Source: Octopus sinensis (Eukaryota). Taken from it: a DNA stretch of 64,000 nt. Positions 2,456-34,267 of the stretch are shown piece after piece (the stretch's first letter is position 1; each line of letters starts with the position of its first letter). Location of the stretch: contig NC_043001.1 of assembly GCF_006345805.1 (NCBI RefSeq), positions 1,054,001 through 1,118,000 of the forward strand. Reading direction: 5' to 3'. The position numbers and the translations under genes were made by a program. The notes under the pieces were generated by a model that saw only the letters and a list, made by a program, of their open reading frames with translations, was not told where the DNA came from and searched no databases.

Positions 2456-3496
2456 ATGGCCGTCCACTCGTGACTAAGGAAGACCATTGCCGACCTTCAG
2501 GAACATTGTGTGCTCTAGGACTAACTTATATTTTGCATTTGCGGCTCCATTGGTGGCTAATGAGCCCTGCTCTTGACAAGCATACACGACTGCAAACATT
2601 GCAGACCAAGCTTTCCCCATTCACTATACAAGCCGTGCGCTTTTGTGTAGCTCGCTTAAGTTCTTCATGCTGGATACGTGCTCTCTCAAAAGTGTCGATC
2701 CCCTCCTTAACATGCTTCCTCCATCTGTGGCGATGACAGGCATTGTTCTCCTAGTCAGTGTTCTGCATATCACAGGCCTTTAATGAGGACTTGACACAGT
2801 CCATAAATCACAGCCTTGGTTTCTGTCAGAGTCTCCTTCCATTCTCAAGTTCTCCATAGAGCATCTGCTTAGAAATCCTTCTATCCTTCATTCTAATAAG
2901 GTGTCCAATCCAACGCAACCGGTGCTTATGCACCATCGCCTCAATACTCAAGATATCAGCTGTCCTCAGGATCTGTGTGTCTGAAATTTTTGAGGTCCAG
3001 CCAACATTGAGAATGTGTCTGAGACATCTCTGATGAAAATGTTCAAGGACCCTTACCTGACGTTTGAACAGAGTCCATGTCTCACATGAGTAGAGAAGCG
3101 ATGTCAGTACACAAGCACGGTACACAGCAACTTTTGTTCTCCTTGCGATACCATGTTGGGACCAGACACGAGACTGGAAGGAATCAGTTGCTCTCTGCAA
3201 CCTGAAAGATATTTCCTCATCCAGGGAGCAAGAATGGCTGAGTGTGCTGCCCAGGTAGACAAACTTGTCTACTACCTTCAGAATTGTTCCTTCAACCAAG
3301 ATAGCTGGTTCTATATATGGATTTCCTGATGCAGGCTGGAACATTACAACAGTCTTGTCCAGGTTAATGCTGAGTCCAAATGCCCTGCAAGAAGCAGAAA
3401 TGCAATTCATGAGTATTTGCATGTCATCCACTGTATGAGTGACTAAGTCACAGTCATCTGCATAAAGGAGGTCATCAATAATAGATTGGGAAACCT
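2452..3496 (-). mobile_element. 5'-truncated RTE (BovB-like) LINE: RT C-terminal half and 3' end
   Basis: ORF 2826-3665 contains DLLYADDC, GLSINLDKT, FVYLGSTLS, LLYSCETW, RLRWIGHLIRM..RISKQMLYGEL; ends in (ATC)n beside a (TA)n tract. Confidence 0.92.
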
Positions 3497-4483
3497 TTGA
3501 ATTGGCAGCAAATCGGATGGTGTGTTTTACGTGCAACAGCCACGATCGCATGGTGCTTTTTACGTGCCACTGGCACGGAGGCAGTCGGAGCGGCGCTGGC
3601 AATGGCCACATTCGGATGGTTCTCTTATGTGCCACCGGCACTGGTATCACAGTTACGATTTCCATTGATGTTGATCGATTTTGATTTTGATTTTGTTTTT
3701 GTTTTTCACTTGCCTCATCAGGTCTTCACAAGTAGAGTTTTGTGTCCCAAGAAGGAAAGGTATGCATAAAGTGGACTGAGGCCATGGGTTATGGCCTCAC
3801 TTGTCCTGCCAGGTCTTTACGCACAGCATACTTCTAAAGGTCTCAGTGTCTATTCATTTCCTCGGTGAGACCTAAAGTTCAAAGGTCGTGCTTCACCACC
3901 TCATCCCAGGTTTTCCTGGGTCTGCCTCTTCCACAGGTTCCCTCAACCGCTAGGGTGTGGCACTTTTTCACACAACTATCTTCATCTATTCTCGTCACAT
4001 GACCATACCAGTGCAAATGTCTCTCATGCACACCACAACTGATGCTTCTTAGGTCCAACTTTTCTCTCAAGGTACTTACACTCTGTCGAGTATGAACACT
4101 GACATTACACATCCATCGGAGCATACTGGCTTCATTTCTTGCGAGCTTATGCATATCCTCAGCAGTCACGGCCCATGTTTCACTGCCATGTAGTATGGCT
4201 GTTCGTACACATGCGTCATACAGTCTGCCTTTTACTCTGAGCAAGAAGCCTTTTGTCCCTAGCAGAGGTAAGAGCTCTCTGAACTTTGCCCAGGCTATTC
4301 TTACTCTAGCAGTTACACTTTCAACACACCCGCCCCCGTTACTGACTTGGTCACCTAGGTAATGGAAGCTATTAACTATTTCTAGTTTGTCTCCCTGGAA
4401 TGTGGTGGAAGTTGGTCTCTGCGCATTTTCAGTGTTTATTTCTCCTGAGCATCTGCCACATACAAAAACTATTTTTTAAGCAC
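3497..4483 (-). mobile_element. Second RTE-family LINE fragment (RT C-terminus plus part of 3'UTR) abutting the first
   Basis: VKGRLYDACVRTAILHGSETW...LHWYGHV...GRGRPRKTW; upstream FVCGRC and FHYLGD; 3'UTR matches the 12085 and 50603 copies. Confidence 0.9.
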
Positions 4484-4778
4484 ATATTTGAAAAAATAAG
4501 TAGGAATGGCTTTTGGGGGATAATTTTTATGTTAATAATAATGTTGTTTACAATGAGTGACTGTGGTATGAGTTTCAAGCTTCAAATAGCCGTTTTCAAA
4601 CTGAAAAATATATGTTTAATTGGTTGCTTAAATGGCTTATTTAAGCAACCAGTAAAACATATATTTTTCAGTTTGAAAACGGCTATTTGAAGCTTGAAAC
4701 TCATACCACAGTCACTCATTGTAAACAACATTATTATTAAAATAAAAATTATCCCCCAAAAGCCATCTCTATTCATTT

Positions 4779-4787
<9 letters not shown>
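4484..4787. repeat. Near-perfect ~300-bp palindrome (arms ~150 bp, 5-nt loop at 4634-4638)
   Basis: 4484-4633 is the reverse complement of 4639-4787, with few mismatches in the inner ~120 bp. Confidence 0.95.
4669..4717 (+). ncRNA. Hammerhead ribozyme-like motif, type I, U3-A8 variant core (mirror copy on - strand at ~4555-4603)
   Basis: AGU-UUGAAAA-C-GGCU(auuuga)AGCU-U-GAAAC-U(cauaccac)A-GUC-ACU. Confidence 0.55.
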
Positions 4788-4820
<33 letters not shown>

Positions 4821-9855: not shown

Positions 9856-9915
9856 ACACACACACATACAAATACATATATATACATATATATATGTGTT
9901 TGTATGTATGTATGA
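9370..9915. repeat. (TA)n/(TACA)n low-complexity field
   Basis: Direct inspection. Confidence 0.95.
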
Positions 9916-10744
9916 TTTACAATCACAAGCCCTCTTTTAAAATTCACGTGAGTTGTAGCATCATGACATATGTGAAACATATATGAATATTGAAAGGAAA
10001 CTCTACACAATATTACATCAACTGGTGTTTACTGGTGTAGACGTTACCTCAGCAGTTGTAGGAGATGCAGACTTTGTTTAGTAGCAGAAAGGATTATATT
10101 GAAGAATTCCATATGACCAAGTGCTTAGAACTCTAAAAGCGGAATACTCTCCACTTGTCCACACAATCAGAAATATATTTTAATTATCTGGCTAGTCCCA
10201 TCCCAGTAATAAGGACTGGTTCTTGCCTGGAAGTCCTCTCATCATAAAAGAAAAATTCTATACCTCTCATCCAGCACTCACACATACGCATATATACATA
10301 CATTCAAGTGCTTTGCAATACCTCAGACTTAAAAACTAGATAGGATGTTTACTATGTAGCTATGTTTTGATGCTGTTTTACTTACCAACACATAAAAGTT
10401 TCTTTAATGTGAAACCATTCAGTAACATGAATCAGCTGTTATGAAACTAAATTTATAATCTGATGCAGTGTAACCTTGACAGTGACTGCATTGTTTTTTG
10501 AATGGCTAACACGTCTTTCATGCTACAATTGTTTTTGCTTCAACACAGACTCCGAGATCAAATTGTTTGCCTTGCATGTACATCACTTGAATTTATAATA
10601 CTGTATGAACAATGCATACATACATACATGCATGCATGCATGCATACATACATACATACATACATACATACATACATGCATACATACATACATACATACA
10701 CACACACACATACATACATACATACATACATGCATGCATGCATA

Positions 10745-18803: not shown

Positions 18804-19165
18804 TATATATACCAATTAAGGACTGAACACGAAAAAGTGGACAGTCAACATGCTAGATATAGACGTCAAATCGTCATTCTCCACAAAAAGTCTATGTTCT
18901 CAGATCAAACTCAACACAAAACCAAAACAATAAACGACCATGCTGATGATGGCTGCACTTTTCCTTGCGGAAAATAACAGCCGAAACTGAATTTAGTACA
19001 TGGGTAAATATTTATTTCGTATATTTTTCACTTGTTTATTGTTTTGGTTTTGTGTTGAGTTTGATCTGAGAACATAGACTTTTTGTGGAGAATGGCGATT
19101 TGACGTCTATATCTAGCATGTTGACTGTCCACTTTTTCGTGTTCAGTCCTTAATTGGTATATATA
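18804..19165. mobile_element. Young fold-back element in (TA)n, Penelope pLTR/retrozyme-like
   Basis: Arms 18804-18935 and 19034-19165 are reverse complements with one mismatch; the spacer holds a hammerhead. Confidence 0.8.
18938..19003 (+). ncRNA. Type I hammerhead ribozyme
   Basis: Stem I CCAUG/CAUGG; core CUGAUGA; stem II GGCUG/CAGCC extended by UUUUCC/GGAAAA; GAAA; stem III ACUG(AAUU)UAGU; cleavage triplet GUA 18996-18998. Confidence 0.9.
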
Positions 19166-19879: not shown

Positions 19880-21352
19880 AACAAAGTTGAAAGTTGGCAA
19901 TGAGCATAGCAAGGAATTTAGTGTACAGCTAGGAGCTTACAAAGATCAATTCTCAGCCCCCTCTTGTTGATCACAGTCCTCCAGGCCACAACAGGGGAAT
20001 TTAAGGCTGGCTGCTCTTGGGAGCTCTGCTGTGTTGATGACCTTGGTCTTATAGCTAAATCCTTACCTGAGCGAGAGAAGAAATTTCAGGTGTGGATGAA
20101 AGGTCTGGAATCAAAAGGAGCTTAGGGTTAATTTAGCAAAGACTAAAATCTTCGTAAGTAGCAAAAAAAAAAAAATCATTGATCTCTTCAATAGGATGGT
20201 CCAGGTCAATATGTAGAAAAGGTGTTGGTTGAACCTCAATATGGTATACCCAGTGCAAGCTATGAACACATAAGTGGTGCAGTGGTGTCAGAGGAAGTGG
20301 TCTTTGTGTGGGACAGATGTATAAGTACAATAAACACTGAGAATGTAGAGAAAATCGACTCCCTCAAATGTCTGGTGGGGTCTTTAGAATAGCAGATACC
20401 TTCTGTTACCTAGGTGTTAAGTTAGCAGTGGAGGAGGAGGCTCTGAGAGCGTAGTTGCTAGAATAACAACAGGCCAGGAAATGTTCAGAGAGCTGCTACC
20501 TCTGTTGGTAACTGAGAGCTTCTCCCTCTGAGTGAAAGCCAGATTGTATGATGCCTGTGTGCTAACAGCTATGCTACATGGCAGTGACACATGGGCTGTG
20601 ACTGCTGAGGACACACAGAGGCTTGAAAGTAATTAAGCCAGTGTAGTCTGCTGGATGGGTAATGTCAGTGTGCATGAATAACAGAATGTGTCTTAAGAGA
20701 AAAATTGGTTATACGAGGCATCAGATGTAGTGTGCAAGAGAGAGGACTGTGTTGGTATGGCCATGTGATGTGTATGGATGAGGGCAACTGCATCAGGAAG
20801 TGCCAATTTCAAATTATGGAGGGAACATGTGGCAGGGGTAAACCCAGGAAGATGTGGGACAAAGTGGTGAGAAAGGGTCTTCAGATATTGGGCCTCATAG
20901 AAGAGATGACAGGGACCAAGACTTCTGGTGGTTTGCTGTACTTAAGGAGACATGTTAAACTAAATAAAATCATGGCTGTTCCTGAATTCAGGCATATCCC
21001 CTACATCCCTCTCTCAGTCAAGAGATCCTAGTCTTGTGTGCTTGTAGGCATTGGTGCCATGTAAAAGCACCATGCTGGTGCCACAGTAAAAGAACCAGTG
21101 ATGGTGCAATGTCACAGTGCCTGTGCTGGTACCACATAAAAGCATCCATGCTGGTGCCATGTAAGAGTGCCCTTGGCAGTGCCATGTTTAAAGCTCCCGG
21201 CACACACTGTAAAGTGGTTGGCACTAGGAAGGGCATCCGGCTGTAGAAACCATGTTAAACAAGACAAAGTGAGCCTGGGAAACTCTCTAGCTGGCCAGCT
21301 CCTCTCAAACTGTCCAACCCATGCCATTATGGAGAACAGACATATGATGATG
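19880..21352 (+). mobile_element. 5'-truncated, decayed RTE LINE with PHD-like insertion in the RT
   Basis: ILSPLL..WELCCVDDL (from LYADD)..LRVNLAKTK..FCYLG..LHGSDTW..LCWYGHV..GRGKPRKMW; RTE-type tail ending (GAT)n. Confidence 0.9.
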
Positions 21353-27789: not shown

Positions 27790-29055
27790 TTTACATATAT
27801 GTATATATATATAAATATATATGTATGTTTTATGTATATGTACTCACATGCACACATGTATACACTCACAGGCATACTGCATATACAAACCATACACACA
27901 TATGTACACCAATTATGTCACATATCTGTGGAGTATATTGTGCATATGAATAGCAACTGCCCCAAAATAATCAGCGTATTTTCTTTCAATGCTGCACTTA
28001 TTACTGAAATGATGTTAGCCATAGGAAAGAGTGAACCTGGAATAAGGATGACCAAGGAAAAAAGTGGTGTGGGACATTCCCTTCAGAATTTTTGCCAACT
28101 TCAAACACAAACCCAACACAGTTCTTTGGGAGAGAAAAATAAAATATTCTGTCACAGAGGTTACAATATATATCATCATCATCATCATCATCATTCATGC
28201 TTCAAATATATGTAGGAATACGTATAACGAATGTACACACATACACACACACACACAACTGCATGCTTGCATATAGATTTTTTTTTATATTATTAGAATT
28301 TATAAACTTTCAACAATTAAAAGCCGTAGTCTCATGGACAGCCTTTGACTTTCTCTATCCAAAAGGGTTTTCACCCTAAAATTTACATTTTAGAGCTCTA
28401 TCATCTACTTTGAGATTTAATATTGATTTACTGTCGGGTGACTTTTGACCAACCTTGTATATATATATATTCATATATATACATATATGTGTGTGTGCTT
28501 ATATATGTACATATATGTAAATATGAGTATGTGCATGTACATATGCGTATGTGCACGTGAGTATGTATGTGTGTGTAAGCACATATGTCCATGCACATGT
28601 GTGTATGCACACATTAGTATACATGTGTATATGCATGCATGCACATATACATATGTACATATAAATGAATATGCATGTGTGTGTGTGCATGCATCTTCGT
28701 TCATATATATATGTACATGTGTATGTGTGTGGGCATGCATACACATACCCATGTACAGATGCGCACACTCACATCAATACAGACATGCATAAAAAAGCAT
28801 ATGAGCGACTCCACGCACCCACATATACAACTATGTACTTGTGCATACCACCCCTTCCTATTTCCCCTCCAACAACCTGGCTGATTTCCTGTTCACCATG
28901 CAGTCAACTTCCTGTTCACCATGTGGTATTATCCAACTAATTGTTGTTGCTGATATACCGATATACCAACATAAAGTCATGGCACCACATGACCTTCCTC
29001 GACCAATCACAACCCATCTTACGGTAATAACAATAAACTTCTTTTAAATTCAAAA

Positions 29056-29095
29056 TGGCTGAAGACTAGCACCACACTTGAAACTCAGAGTACCA
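29056..29095 (+). ncRNA. Decayed type I hammerhead motif
   Basis: UGG-CUGAAGA-(cuagcaccacacuu)-GAAAC-UCAGA-GUA-CCA; near-palindromic stem III ACUC(A)GAGU; stem II poorly paired. Confidence 0.55.
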
Positions 29096-29123
29096 ACAAA
29101 TCTGAACCAAACTATTTTGATCC

Positions 29124-29250: not shown

Positions 29251-29342
29251 CATTCTTTGCTTGAAATTCACCAGGAAATCATGAAATGGCAGGTACTCAG
29301 ATTCGTAGGAATATTTTTTTTTATGGTTTAATTTGTGCATAT

Positions 29343-29398
29343 ATTCACCTGATGTAAACGCTATTCACCAAAAAATGTCTGAAACAGCTGTAGTGAAT
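29343..29398 (+). ncRNA. Type I hammerhead motif with one core substitution
   Basis: 6-bp stem I AUUCAC/GUGAAU; CUGAUGU; GAAAC-AGCU-GUA with palindromic stem III ACAGCUGU; stem II partly decayed. Confidence 0.7.
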
Positions 29399-30477
29399 GA
29401 ACCACAATCCATCTGTTGTTATTTGCTTATTATTCACCTTACCCAGAACCTGCAATTAGCATGGATCTGGTGTCTATTGAGTGCAGTACTTGTACCCAGG
29501 TGCAGCTGGCTGCTTGTGATTGTACATGCAACTGGAATATAGATCTGTCTTTACTTTGGTATGTTCCACTAATTTTGATTTGTAAACGATAGTGATTTTA
29601 TTGACCTGACTTTGGTGCTTTACTATTTAAGGATTTGATTTGCTGGTATCCTGAACTTTTATGTATACATATATATATTTATAAAATTCACACATACTTT
29701 TGTGTACTCATACATTCATACACACATATAATGGATAACATATTGGTCCACTTACTTAAATTCCTTGAGATTAAATCTCTTTTTTGGATACTTTGTTGTG
29801 TGCATGGTCCACAGAATTAAGTGGTCATGCTCCACTTTGCAAACTATTGGGGAAAAAGTACCATTTCATCTGGGAATATTTTATGAGATGGTCAGAAATT
29901 TGTTGTGAAAATGGTACTCTCCTTCCAACATGACAAAGTGGTATGACTGGGCCACTATAAAGCCAGACAGTCAGTCGTTGTAGAAAGTCAGTGGTAGTAG
30001 AGTCATTGTACAGTTTTTCAGTTGGAGCCAGTGTCAGTTATATGATACATACAAGTTTGAGTTACTGTCAAGGTAAGATGTTTCAAGTCACTGTCTTGTG
30101 GAGCTAACAGCAATAACATTTATAGATGAGTCAAAGGTAATAAGACGTGGAATACCACTACAACATAATAGTGGTGATAGAATATTACAGTGCCAATAAT
30201 AACATAAAAGTGGACGAGGATCTCACATAATACCAGAATTCTTGCTAGAATAAGAGTCATTTGTTACCAGCAAAGGTTCTTCCACTATTTAGGAAAGTAT
30301 GACATCTATGACATACATGATAGTGAATTGGTGAAATATAACTTGGAATTTACAATTTCAATTTCGAAATTTAAAACAGTGTAATTATTTATCATCATTT
30401 AAAGCAGTGTAATTATTCATCATCATTTCGTCTGGAAAAAATCAGAACATACATGGAACTAAGTATGTAATTCTTAC

Positions 30478-32330: not shown

Positions 32331-34267
32331 CAGCAAGTGGATTGATCCACAGTTAAATGTTTTGGAAGGAAAATCTATTTGCTGCGATGTTTCATCCCCT
32401 TACATTGTTGTAATATTTCTCATAAAATAAACTGCTTATAACTTACAATGATTTTTAAAATTGATGAAGAATTTTGTAGAATATATTTGAAATAATGAAC
32501 TTGTAGCATTTAAGTTAGAGTTTAGAAGAAGACAAAATGTTCCAACACAAAGTCTTAAGATGAAGATTTTTTAATCATGTCCAAGTTAGCCAGACTTAAC
32601 TCTGTCAGGCAAGAGTGACTTTTGGGAAGTTTCTCTTCAAGATATAAACATCAGGAAAGAAGTTTTTCCTTTTTAACAGAAGACCAATAGTAGAAAGTTT
32701 GCCCCTTCTACAGCACTGATGTCCTGGAGAATGACAGGTATCAATAATACAGTGTGATACCAGTGTCATTACAGGTGAAATCATGACACAATAATCTCTG
32801 TGAATTTATTGCTCTGGATTGGTACATTTTTTATTTAAGCTTTCCCTCCCATGCCTGCTCCCCCACGGATGAGAAGCAGAGGGGATTTCAGAACATACAA
32901 AACTGGAACAAATACCACAAGGTATTTTGTCTGATACCCTGCCAATTACCCAATGAACTCATCCTATTCATTCTAGAATTGTTTACAGAATGAATTACTC
33001 AGAGATGCCATCTGTATGAGAAGCAATCATCAAGTTAGTATTAATAAATCTAACGCAGTGAGCATTATGAAGCTAAACAGAAATAATTAAGTGACGAGAT
33101 GATATTAGGTATTGGGTAATCTAATTCTAATTAGAAAATCAAGGTTGTTTACATATTAGATTAGCCAGGGGTGCCAATTCTCTCATCATTATTTGGTACT
33201 TATGGTGCAGTCTCTGTTTCACTGATGAGAGCATAATAAGACCAAAACATGCCCTAAATTGCTTCTTGTTATATTGAAATAATTAAAATAATTACTTCTT
33301 GCTAGGGCACAAGGTCAACAGCTTTCAGGAGAGGCAATCAGTACATTACATCAACCCCAGTATTTCACCAACATTTTATCTTATTAACCCTGATGGGTTG
33401 AAAAGTCAAAGTTCACCTCAGTGGAATTTGAACTCAAAACTTAAAGAGCCTATGCTCTAACAATTCTGCTAATCTGCTTCTTTGAAAAACTTGAAAGAAC
33501 TGAAAACTAAAACGAATAAAATTTTCATTTGTCCAGCCATGATTTAAGAAAATGGAAAGAATTTTATCATGAACTGAGATTTGTACTCCCCCCACCCTTA
33601 CGACATTCTTTTTTCAAGTTAGGTTTTTAGTGTTCCTTCAATTAAATATGTTAATACTGATTTAACTCCTCATATTGGCAGAATAAAAATTCCTTAGAGA
33701 CACCAGGGAGCCAACACGGAAGCACATCTACACTAGCGATTCTCAAATGGAGTCTCATGGATTTTTTTGAAATACAATTTAAGGCTTCAGAACATCCACA
33801 CTAATAACCAAGCATTTTTTTTTTAAACTTCGTAATTTCTATTTTTTTTTATACCCAAGTTTTCTATATTTTTTTCTGAATTTGTAACTTTAAAGCTCAG
33901 ATTTTTTTTAAACAGAGATATGCATCAGTAATTTTTTTTAGTTTGCATTGAAAGCAATGTTTTTTGTTTGATCTTTAATGCAACTACAAAGTCAAAAAGA
34001 AGATTGGGAACCATTCCACTACATGGTCACTCCATCTAGAAATAGCAACCAAATATCCCTCACATCACACCCTAAAATATTAGAGAAGAAAAAGGCTACA
34101 TTAGATAATGTGGGTAAGCATACTCCTCAAAAGATAGGGTGGTCATATTTGGAGTGACCTTTGATCATAAATTTGCTTCTAATATCTCACTCACTTCGCT
34201 ATTTGGTTAAAATCTTTTTGTTGATATAATTAGAGAAATCAATATTTAGGTAGACAACAAACTACAT

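Follow-up and report, generated by a model that had tools for sequence, protein, structure and literature searches.

The locus described here raises the question of why a stretch of octopus DNA should carry the same hammerhead-like motif on both strands of a long palindrome. In the window (the whole stretch of Octopus sinensis DNA that was analysed, 64,000 nucleotides), a left arm at 4484–4633 (− strand) and a right arm at 4639–4788 (+ strand), each of 150 nt, are 93% complementary with 140/150 positions alike and enclose a centre of 5 nt at 4634–4638 (no strand assigned). This is the geometry given by an earlier note on this DNA, which had interpreted the motif as a genuine covariant ribozyme. 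RNA folding of 4470–4800 yields −209 kcal/mol (z −29.8), a value equalled by 0/100 shuffles. The window is AT-rich animal DNA, dense in microsatellites and with LINE pieces, and the palindrome is flanked by a LINE fragment on the left and by an (AT)16 microsatellite at 4783–4814 (no strand assigned) on the right. We regard it as highly probable that the palindrome represents two head-to-head ends of one repeat family beside (TA)n, likely a single insertion of a Hydra-clade Penelope-like element whose 3' end carries a predicted U3-A8 hammerhead. The observation made in the earlier note is confirmed; the retroelement context is what it had missed.

On the plus strand, 4670–4716 reads as a minimal type I hammerhead-like motif with a U3-A8 core. 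Stem I pairs 4670–4672 with 4714–4716 and is followed by UUGAAAA at 4673–4679 and an unpaired C at 4680. Stem II pairs 4681–4684 with 4691–4694, with an unpaired U at 4695 and GAAA at 4696–4699 behind it, and stem III of 3 bp leads to the GUC triplet that ends at 4713, after which the cut is predicted. The earlier note had parsed the motif in the same way, and its placement on both strands holds as well, as a mirror motif of identical sequence lies at 4556–4602 (−) with the core starting at 4599. The minimal type I core, (Y)UGANRA ... GAAA ... UH with a 3-8 pair, is present, the candidate helices around it having 3 (I), 4 (II) and 3 bp (III) and the motif being decayed at 4709. The weakness of stem I and of the stem II base, already pointed out earlier, is evident: the G10.1-C11.1 pair is absent (U at 4695), and the base of helix II consists of a C-U mismatch plus a G-U. 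A canonical CUGANGA search would indeed miss such a motif, and searches limited to CUGANGA undercount these elements. The U3-A8 pair is no surprise: its covariation is published for natural hammerheads in the available part of PMC3088659, and the part of PMC4209133 at hand gives about 1,300 matches of U3-A8 hammerheads in Penelope-like elements of Schistosoma mansoni.

A relaxed hammerhead descriptor, tuned after the motif had been seen, finds three places over the 64 kb, namely both arms and one C3-G8 motif at 18943. It matches 3/5000 arm shuffles, and its U3-A8 form occurs 0.1 times per shuffled window. At the Rfam gathering score the palindrome motif has no match; the canonical-core motifs at 18943 and 29049 are likewise below it. 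Among the 52 Rfam matches at E up to 10, hammerhead families are represented by 0; these are microRNA-precursor-type and other models, all under their gathering scores, and they arise because of the hairpin. A microRNA precursor was rejected, since the arms are too long and the scores far below cut-off. The hammerhead fold of this copy is calculated at +0.2 kcal/mol and is predicted not to form. Stem I has a pairing probability of 0 in the predicted fold, even for a single arm, and all three hammerhead stems vanish in the prediction for the full hairpin. The proposal that the hairpin would sequester the motif therefore stands as a folding prediction for any RNA made at this locus. By these models the hammerhead in this copy is probably inert. 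Just 5' of the core, at 4664–4671 (+), a pyrimidine run and CAG resemble a 3' splice site. The intron of the D. virilis Penelope ends at helix I, according to the available text of PMC4209133, and the splice-site-like sequence could explain the short stem I.

The arms do not stand alone. Between 10 and 31% of sampled words were found in 20 runs (five organisms, ten studies), none of which reaches half; no RNA run is listed among them, so that this comparison is uninformative on expression. Of the 24 listed runs, 4 were mapped onto 4600–4796 at 80% likeness (X1, X2 and X3, contigs; X24, RNA); the window's own species may be absent from the runs. The right arm is matched by 170, 273 and 291 contigs of X1, X2 and X3 (734 in total), most of them under 95% alike. 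Depth is 0 across 4600–4634 in all four runs and 0/734 contigs cover the centre, although contigs may drop hairpin centres and such coverage holes are no proof. In three runs, 16, 21 and 15 contigs run on before 4638 into A-rich, non-palindromic sequence, and single contigs contain other opposite-strand joints, at 4639/4727 (X1, X2) and 4667/4758 (X1). Because of the upstream divergence, the other joints and the uncovered centre, each arm is read as the 5'-truncated 3' end of a dispersed repeat, the left one reading outward to the left and the right one outward to the right, and the head-to-head junction at the centre looks locus-specific. No further copy of the arm was found in the 64-kb window; for this reason, and because the arrangement is not tandem, a non-LTR retrozyme was rejected. 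A family-specific pattern search gave 0 loci in metagenome contigs and 0 in viral contigs. For X24, 6% of the run (12.9 million records) was covered and gave 25 RNA reads, 21/25 of which are under 90% alike; their ends show no pile-up, in a number too small to judge self-cleavage, and they are uninformative on this locus.

Four sites inside the motif vary at high frequency among the copies: 4686 (loop II), 4706 (loop III), 4713 (H17) and 4709. Variants were listed from a threshold of 5%, with five weaker rows beyond those displayed. H17 at 4713 is C or A, both allowed, with A in 54–78% of depth, which reads GUA. At 4709, G takes 84–92% of depth and restores the pair 4702–4709, so that stem III has 4 bp and loop III 6 nt in the family majority; both arms of the palindrome have the minority letter and a broken stem III. 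Position 4695 is U in most copies and C in 9–17% of depth, and the highest listed core variants in the DNA runs are A6 (5%) and G12 (6%). The chance of all four variable sites falling in tolerated positions only is about 0.02, as a post hoc estimate. Neither C at 4673 nor G at 4678 appears among the variants listed for the three DNA runs. With no C3 or G8 variant listed, U3-A8 is therefore the family state, and decay from C3-G8 in this copy was rejected. The U3-A8 reading of the earlier note is supported by these results, none of the four common variable sites being in the 3-8 pair. Compared with the family's U3-A8 motif, that of this copy is in a poorer state. The family keeps U3 and A8 jointly with no C3/U3 or G8/A8 mix, which suggests selection on the 3-8 pair, and from its sequences a ribozyme at family level is plausible. 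Stem I still has 3 bp in the main subfamily. Noisy loose-end consensuses (4700–4727) hint at a subfamily that lacks a few bases behind the cut site and in which stem I would reach 4 bp.

Several features agree with the Hydra clade of Penelope-like elements: the layout as judged by inspection, the (TA)n target, the candidate YLSNQ* end just upstream of the motif and the head-to-head joining of the copies. A layout pattern search that left positions 3 and 8 free found at least 121 metagenome loci and 6 viral loci; the resemblance is partly built in, because the pattern was partly drawn from the palindrome motif. Among the matches listed (127 loci) there are 107 distinct motifs, 92 of them C3-G8, 4 U3-A8, 5 U3-G8 and 6 C3-A8, and in 23 a CRH..K-type ORF end lies 101–239 nt upstream. 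Some kind of inverted repeat is present in 19/86 of the listed loci of at least 1 kb: in L028 the two arms of a head-to-head palindrome of 160 bp each carry the motif, L074 and L048 have inverted pairs that are set wider, and the arrangement of L029 is tail-to-tail. One U3-A8 motif, L104:291–342 (+), is a well-formed hammerhead with a UUGAAAA core and a 6-bp stem I that follows a Hydra-type endonuclease C-terminus. It occurs as one copy only and is the better assay candidate for the U3-A8 variant; judged by sequence, the three remaining U3-A8 motifs among the matches listed look like chance matches. L104 alone is no proof of covariation, because single decayed C3-A8 and U3-G8 copies occur too. 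No Pfam family was found for the 721-aa ORF of L069 or for the L104 piece, and they are assigned to Hydra because their motifs are like those aligned in the available part of PMC8557442. A homolog search with L053 returned no informative name among the best 120 of 2380, and the family's own protein was not found there. Hammerheads of this layout are also found in L039, L125 and L127, whose contigs belong to the viral collection as well; L039 and L124 are one and the same stretch.

Within the arm, the link to this clade starts from YLSNQ* at 4638–4655 (+), candidate last five codons plus stop of an ORF resembling Hydra-clade C-termini. YLSN is the commonest 4-mer at that place (12/108 Hydra-type C-termini), and a stop at the same distance is found in 17/108, in a set that is biased because its query protein itself has YLSN. 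The score of YLSNQ* is reached by 5/3000 shuffles and 3/1910 window tiles. The CRH part of the CRHxxKF(Y)LxN-type tail lies beyond the truncation, and loose ends of other copies fit CRHxxKF poorly: by eye, the Cys encoded by a 30-nt loose end precedes YLSN by the right distance, but the residues there are K-K-K-I-F-C as compared to R-H-x-x-K-F in the clade. The distance from this Cys to the core would be about 56 nt, below all 23 ORF-linked loci, and the loose ends imply a 3' UTR shorter than in any of them. The clade is defined by a single ORF with RT plus, at the C-terminus, a GIY-YIG endonuclease with RWK, DKT and CxCX5C motifs; no RT or endonuclease sequence of the family was recovered, the ORF link consisting of the five codons and the 30-nt loose ends. 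Insertion into (TA)n is indicated by the (AT)16, the putative target as read from the sequence, and by a loose-end consensus of other copies that also ends in ATATA. The copies are dispersed and 5'-truncated and show other opposite-strand joints, as is typical of Hydra-type elements. A covariance model of 23 C3-G8 Hydra-type motifs, in which stems I and II covary, scores the two palindrome copies at 11.7 bits (E 1.3; ranks 4 and 5 of 7) and picks a different downstream register for them. Membership of the family in the Hydra clade is likely on these sequence features, a grade to which we hold because of the lack of an ORF, the poor loose-end fit, the low model score and the pattern bias.

Other sequences of this type are found in the window. 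A decayed Hydra-clade GIY-YIG C-terminus (tblastn E 1e-7) lies at 9858–10182 (+), with stops, a frameshift and a microsatellite interruption. At 29049–29102 (+), shortly before a TA run, there is a C3-G8 hammerhead of Hydra layout (28.1 bits, E 5e-5) with a damaged stem II, and weaker ones lie at 29339–29402 (+) and 32989–33043 (−). A second inverted repeat, 18799–18935/19034–19170 (137 nt, 99%), is located near TA runs, and its 98-nt spacer contains a well-formed C3-G8 type I hammerhead with the core at 18943. Its stems I and II, of 5 bp each, are present in the predicted fold, stem III is near-palindromic, and the repeat arms are tail-to-tail relative to the motif, which is the rarer arrangement. 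Going by predicted folds, the 18943 motif is a better ribozyme candidate than the palindrome motif. Left of the palindrome, LINE-like ORF fragments are found at 2826–3725 (−), where the RT match falls below the Pfam cut-off, and at 3879–4475 (−), which has an inverted relative at about 20388–20870 (72%).

The two arms differ at 10/150 positions, of which 7 lie in the outer 22 nt and 3 in the inner 128 nt (Fisher p 5e-5; p 0.002 without the last 8 nt), and the centre is asymmetric. The inner arms have the window's minority letters in common; the outer 22 nt differ, with the left arm carrying family-majority letters at the equivalents of 4772, 4781 and 4782. Any one of four causes could lie behind this pattern: arm-to-arm conversion, insertion into an older copy, a variable tail, or polishing. 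On both sides the inverted repeat ends at the family's own end without extending into the flanks, and ATAT at 4484–4487 may be the left remnant of the (AT)16 target. GCAC is found at 4480–4483 and at 4815–4818; it might mark a target-site duplication, and it is common beside such AT repeats. Arm identity falls at 4762–4771 (+). Next to this drop is a GCCA-CTCTA-like motif, similar to the 3' end of the consensus that precedes Hydra-1_Obim in the available part of PMC8557442. This motif may mark the start of reverse transcription and the remainder an optional tail.

In the mechanism that we propose, the GIY-YIG endonuclease of the element would cut the TA run. Reverse transcription would start at the 3' end of the element and halt about 150 nt further on, where the last ORF codons lie, and a second inverted 5'-truncated copy would be joined at the halt point, by both-strand priming or by fold-back. 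Both are possible, and the data here fit either. Inverted junctions are described for Penelope elements in the available parts of PMC3846280 and PMC8557442, and an Anolis protein acts on AT-rich sites, where it cuts and extends both strands (PMC11167929, as far as accessible). The family's upstream letters suggest that the join was originally a short perfect palindrome that has since changed. In the parent element, the role of the hammerhead would be to process the precursor RNA, probably in dimeric form or assisted by a protein; published minimal motifs hardly cleave as monomers, and the accessible text of PMC11167929 reports one reconstituted system in which hammerhead cleavage needed protein and was dispensable for insertion. 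Here, in a copy with neither promoter nor ORF, it is probably carried along as a passenger: its stem III is damaged, and the long hairpin is what any read-through RNA would form instead. We conclude that the locus is probably an ordinary transposon leftover, a 5'-truncated inverted insertion of a Hydra-like element, and that the two-strand layout is due to how Penelope-like elements insert.

A more far-reaching version, which we consider unlikely, is that this is an undescribed Hydra-clade family in which U3-A8 was fixed independently of the Cercyon elements, with inner arms kept alike by conversion and with hairpin RNA possibly acting against the family. If true, it would be a case from nature in favour of selection for catalysis in Penelope hammerheads; a family that keeps U3 and A8 together is one more natural test case. 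Slimmer still is the chance of an internally deleted DNA transposon (a MITE or foldback element) that targeted TA and is bounded by long terminal inverted repeats, the motif being there by chance or inheritance. It would account for both arms stopping at the same outer point within TA and for the poor score of the motif in this copy, but not for a centre absent from all matching contigs, inverted joints at different places, family variants that respect the hammerhead layout, YLSNQ* at the inner end of the arm, or Hydra-type loci with the same palindrome layout. An active U3-A8 ribozyme kept on both strands at the locus and gated by the hairpin agrees with the intact core of both arms, with the predicted loss of all stems in the full hairpin and with inner arms more alike than the outer 22 nt, which arm-to-arm conversion could bring about. 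We give it very little credence: stem III is broken by the minority letter that both arms have at 4709, a single arm folds unfavourably, locus conservation is unsupported with a best run share of words of 0.31 and none at half, and the X24 reads are mostly divergent with ends that do not pile up. The functional two-strand device of the earlier note is not supported, this copy having a stem III mismatch and, by prediction, a positive folding energy and an unpaired stem I. An assembly or polishing artefact (a fold-back read, or arms equalised by polishing) is equally improbable: no matching contig spans the centre, no run has most of the words and the inner arms are very alike, but coverage holes in contigs prove nothing, the repeat reaches on either side only as far as the family's own end, with different flanks beyond (LINE piece left, TA run right), and there are 10 differences between the arms besides an asymmetric centre.

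The insertion of a Hydra-like element thus remains the preferred reading, and it can be compared with known systems. The repeat family may be undescribed; its core variant and its arrangement are both already published. We found no U3-A8 Hydra-clade family in the literature covered, a scope outside which Repbase, Dfam and most subscription papers lie. Searches for the wording C3U/G8A returned nothing, those for 'U3-A8' PMC4209133 only, and those joining octopus, Penelope and hammerhead ribozyme PMC8557442 only. The closest system is the Hydra clade of Penelope-like elements with a C-terminal endonuclease (Craig et al. 2021, PMC8557442; e.g. Hydra-2_aJap), which, in the parts available, is alike in the predicted hammerhead near the 3' end, the unpaired bases flanking the base of a 4-bp stem II, the actc/gagt stem III, the (TA)n target, a putative KFYLSN-type ORF end and hammerheads on both strands from an inverted 5'-truncated copy, as in Penelope-13_HM. 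All 26 Hydra rows in its File S2 are C3-G8, 14 have an unpaired t before GAA, and 5 have the actc/gagt stem III; loop III has 0–3 nt, and nearly all families target (TA)n. While the Hydra rows are C3-G8, the octopus family is U3-A8 with a 6-nt loop III and a 3-bp stem I, its 3' UTR is apparently very short, and it is known here without its ORF. The hammerhead listed for Hydra-1_oBim in PMC8557442 is a different sequence from the palindrome motif.

The U3-A8 core is shared with the Cercyon elements of S. mansoni (Cervera and de la Pena 2014, PMC4209133, in the part accessible), where the S. mansoni(4) row has the same UUGAAAA and 3-bp helix I. Both also have one additional base behind A9, a 5' flank rich in U, a 3' flank rich in AU, and opposite-strand pairs, which in Penelope-like elements lie 100–700 bp apart. 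In contrast to the palindrome motif with its C-U mismatch plus G-U, helix II of Cercyon is longer and closed by G10.1-C11.1, and its helix III is almost nil as compared to 4 bp in the octopus family majority. In Adineta vaga, the inverted pLTR junctions that Penelope elements form (Arkhipova et al. 2013, PMC3846280, as available) are also head-to-head and palindromic; they mostly flank an ORF, whereas the palindrome would retain the last ORF codons only. Animal non-LTR retrozymes, in the available text of bioRxiv 10.64898/2026.07.22.740005, are also short, non-coding and derived from Penelope-like elements with a type I hammerhead, but they form head-to-tail tandem arrays, and the palindrome is an inverted pair.
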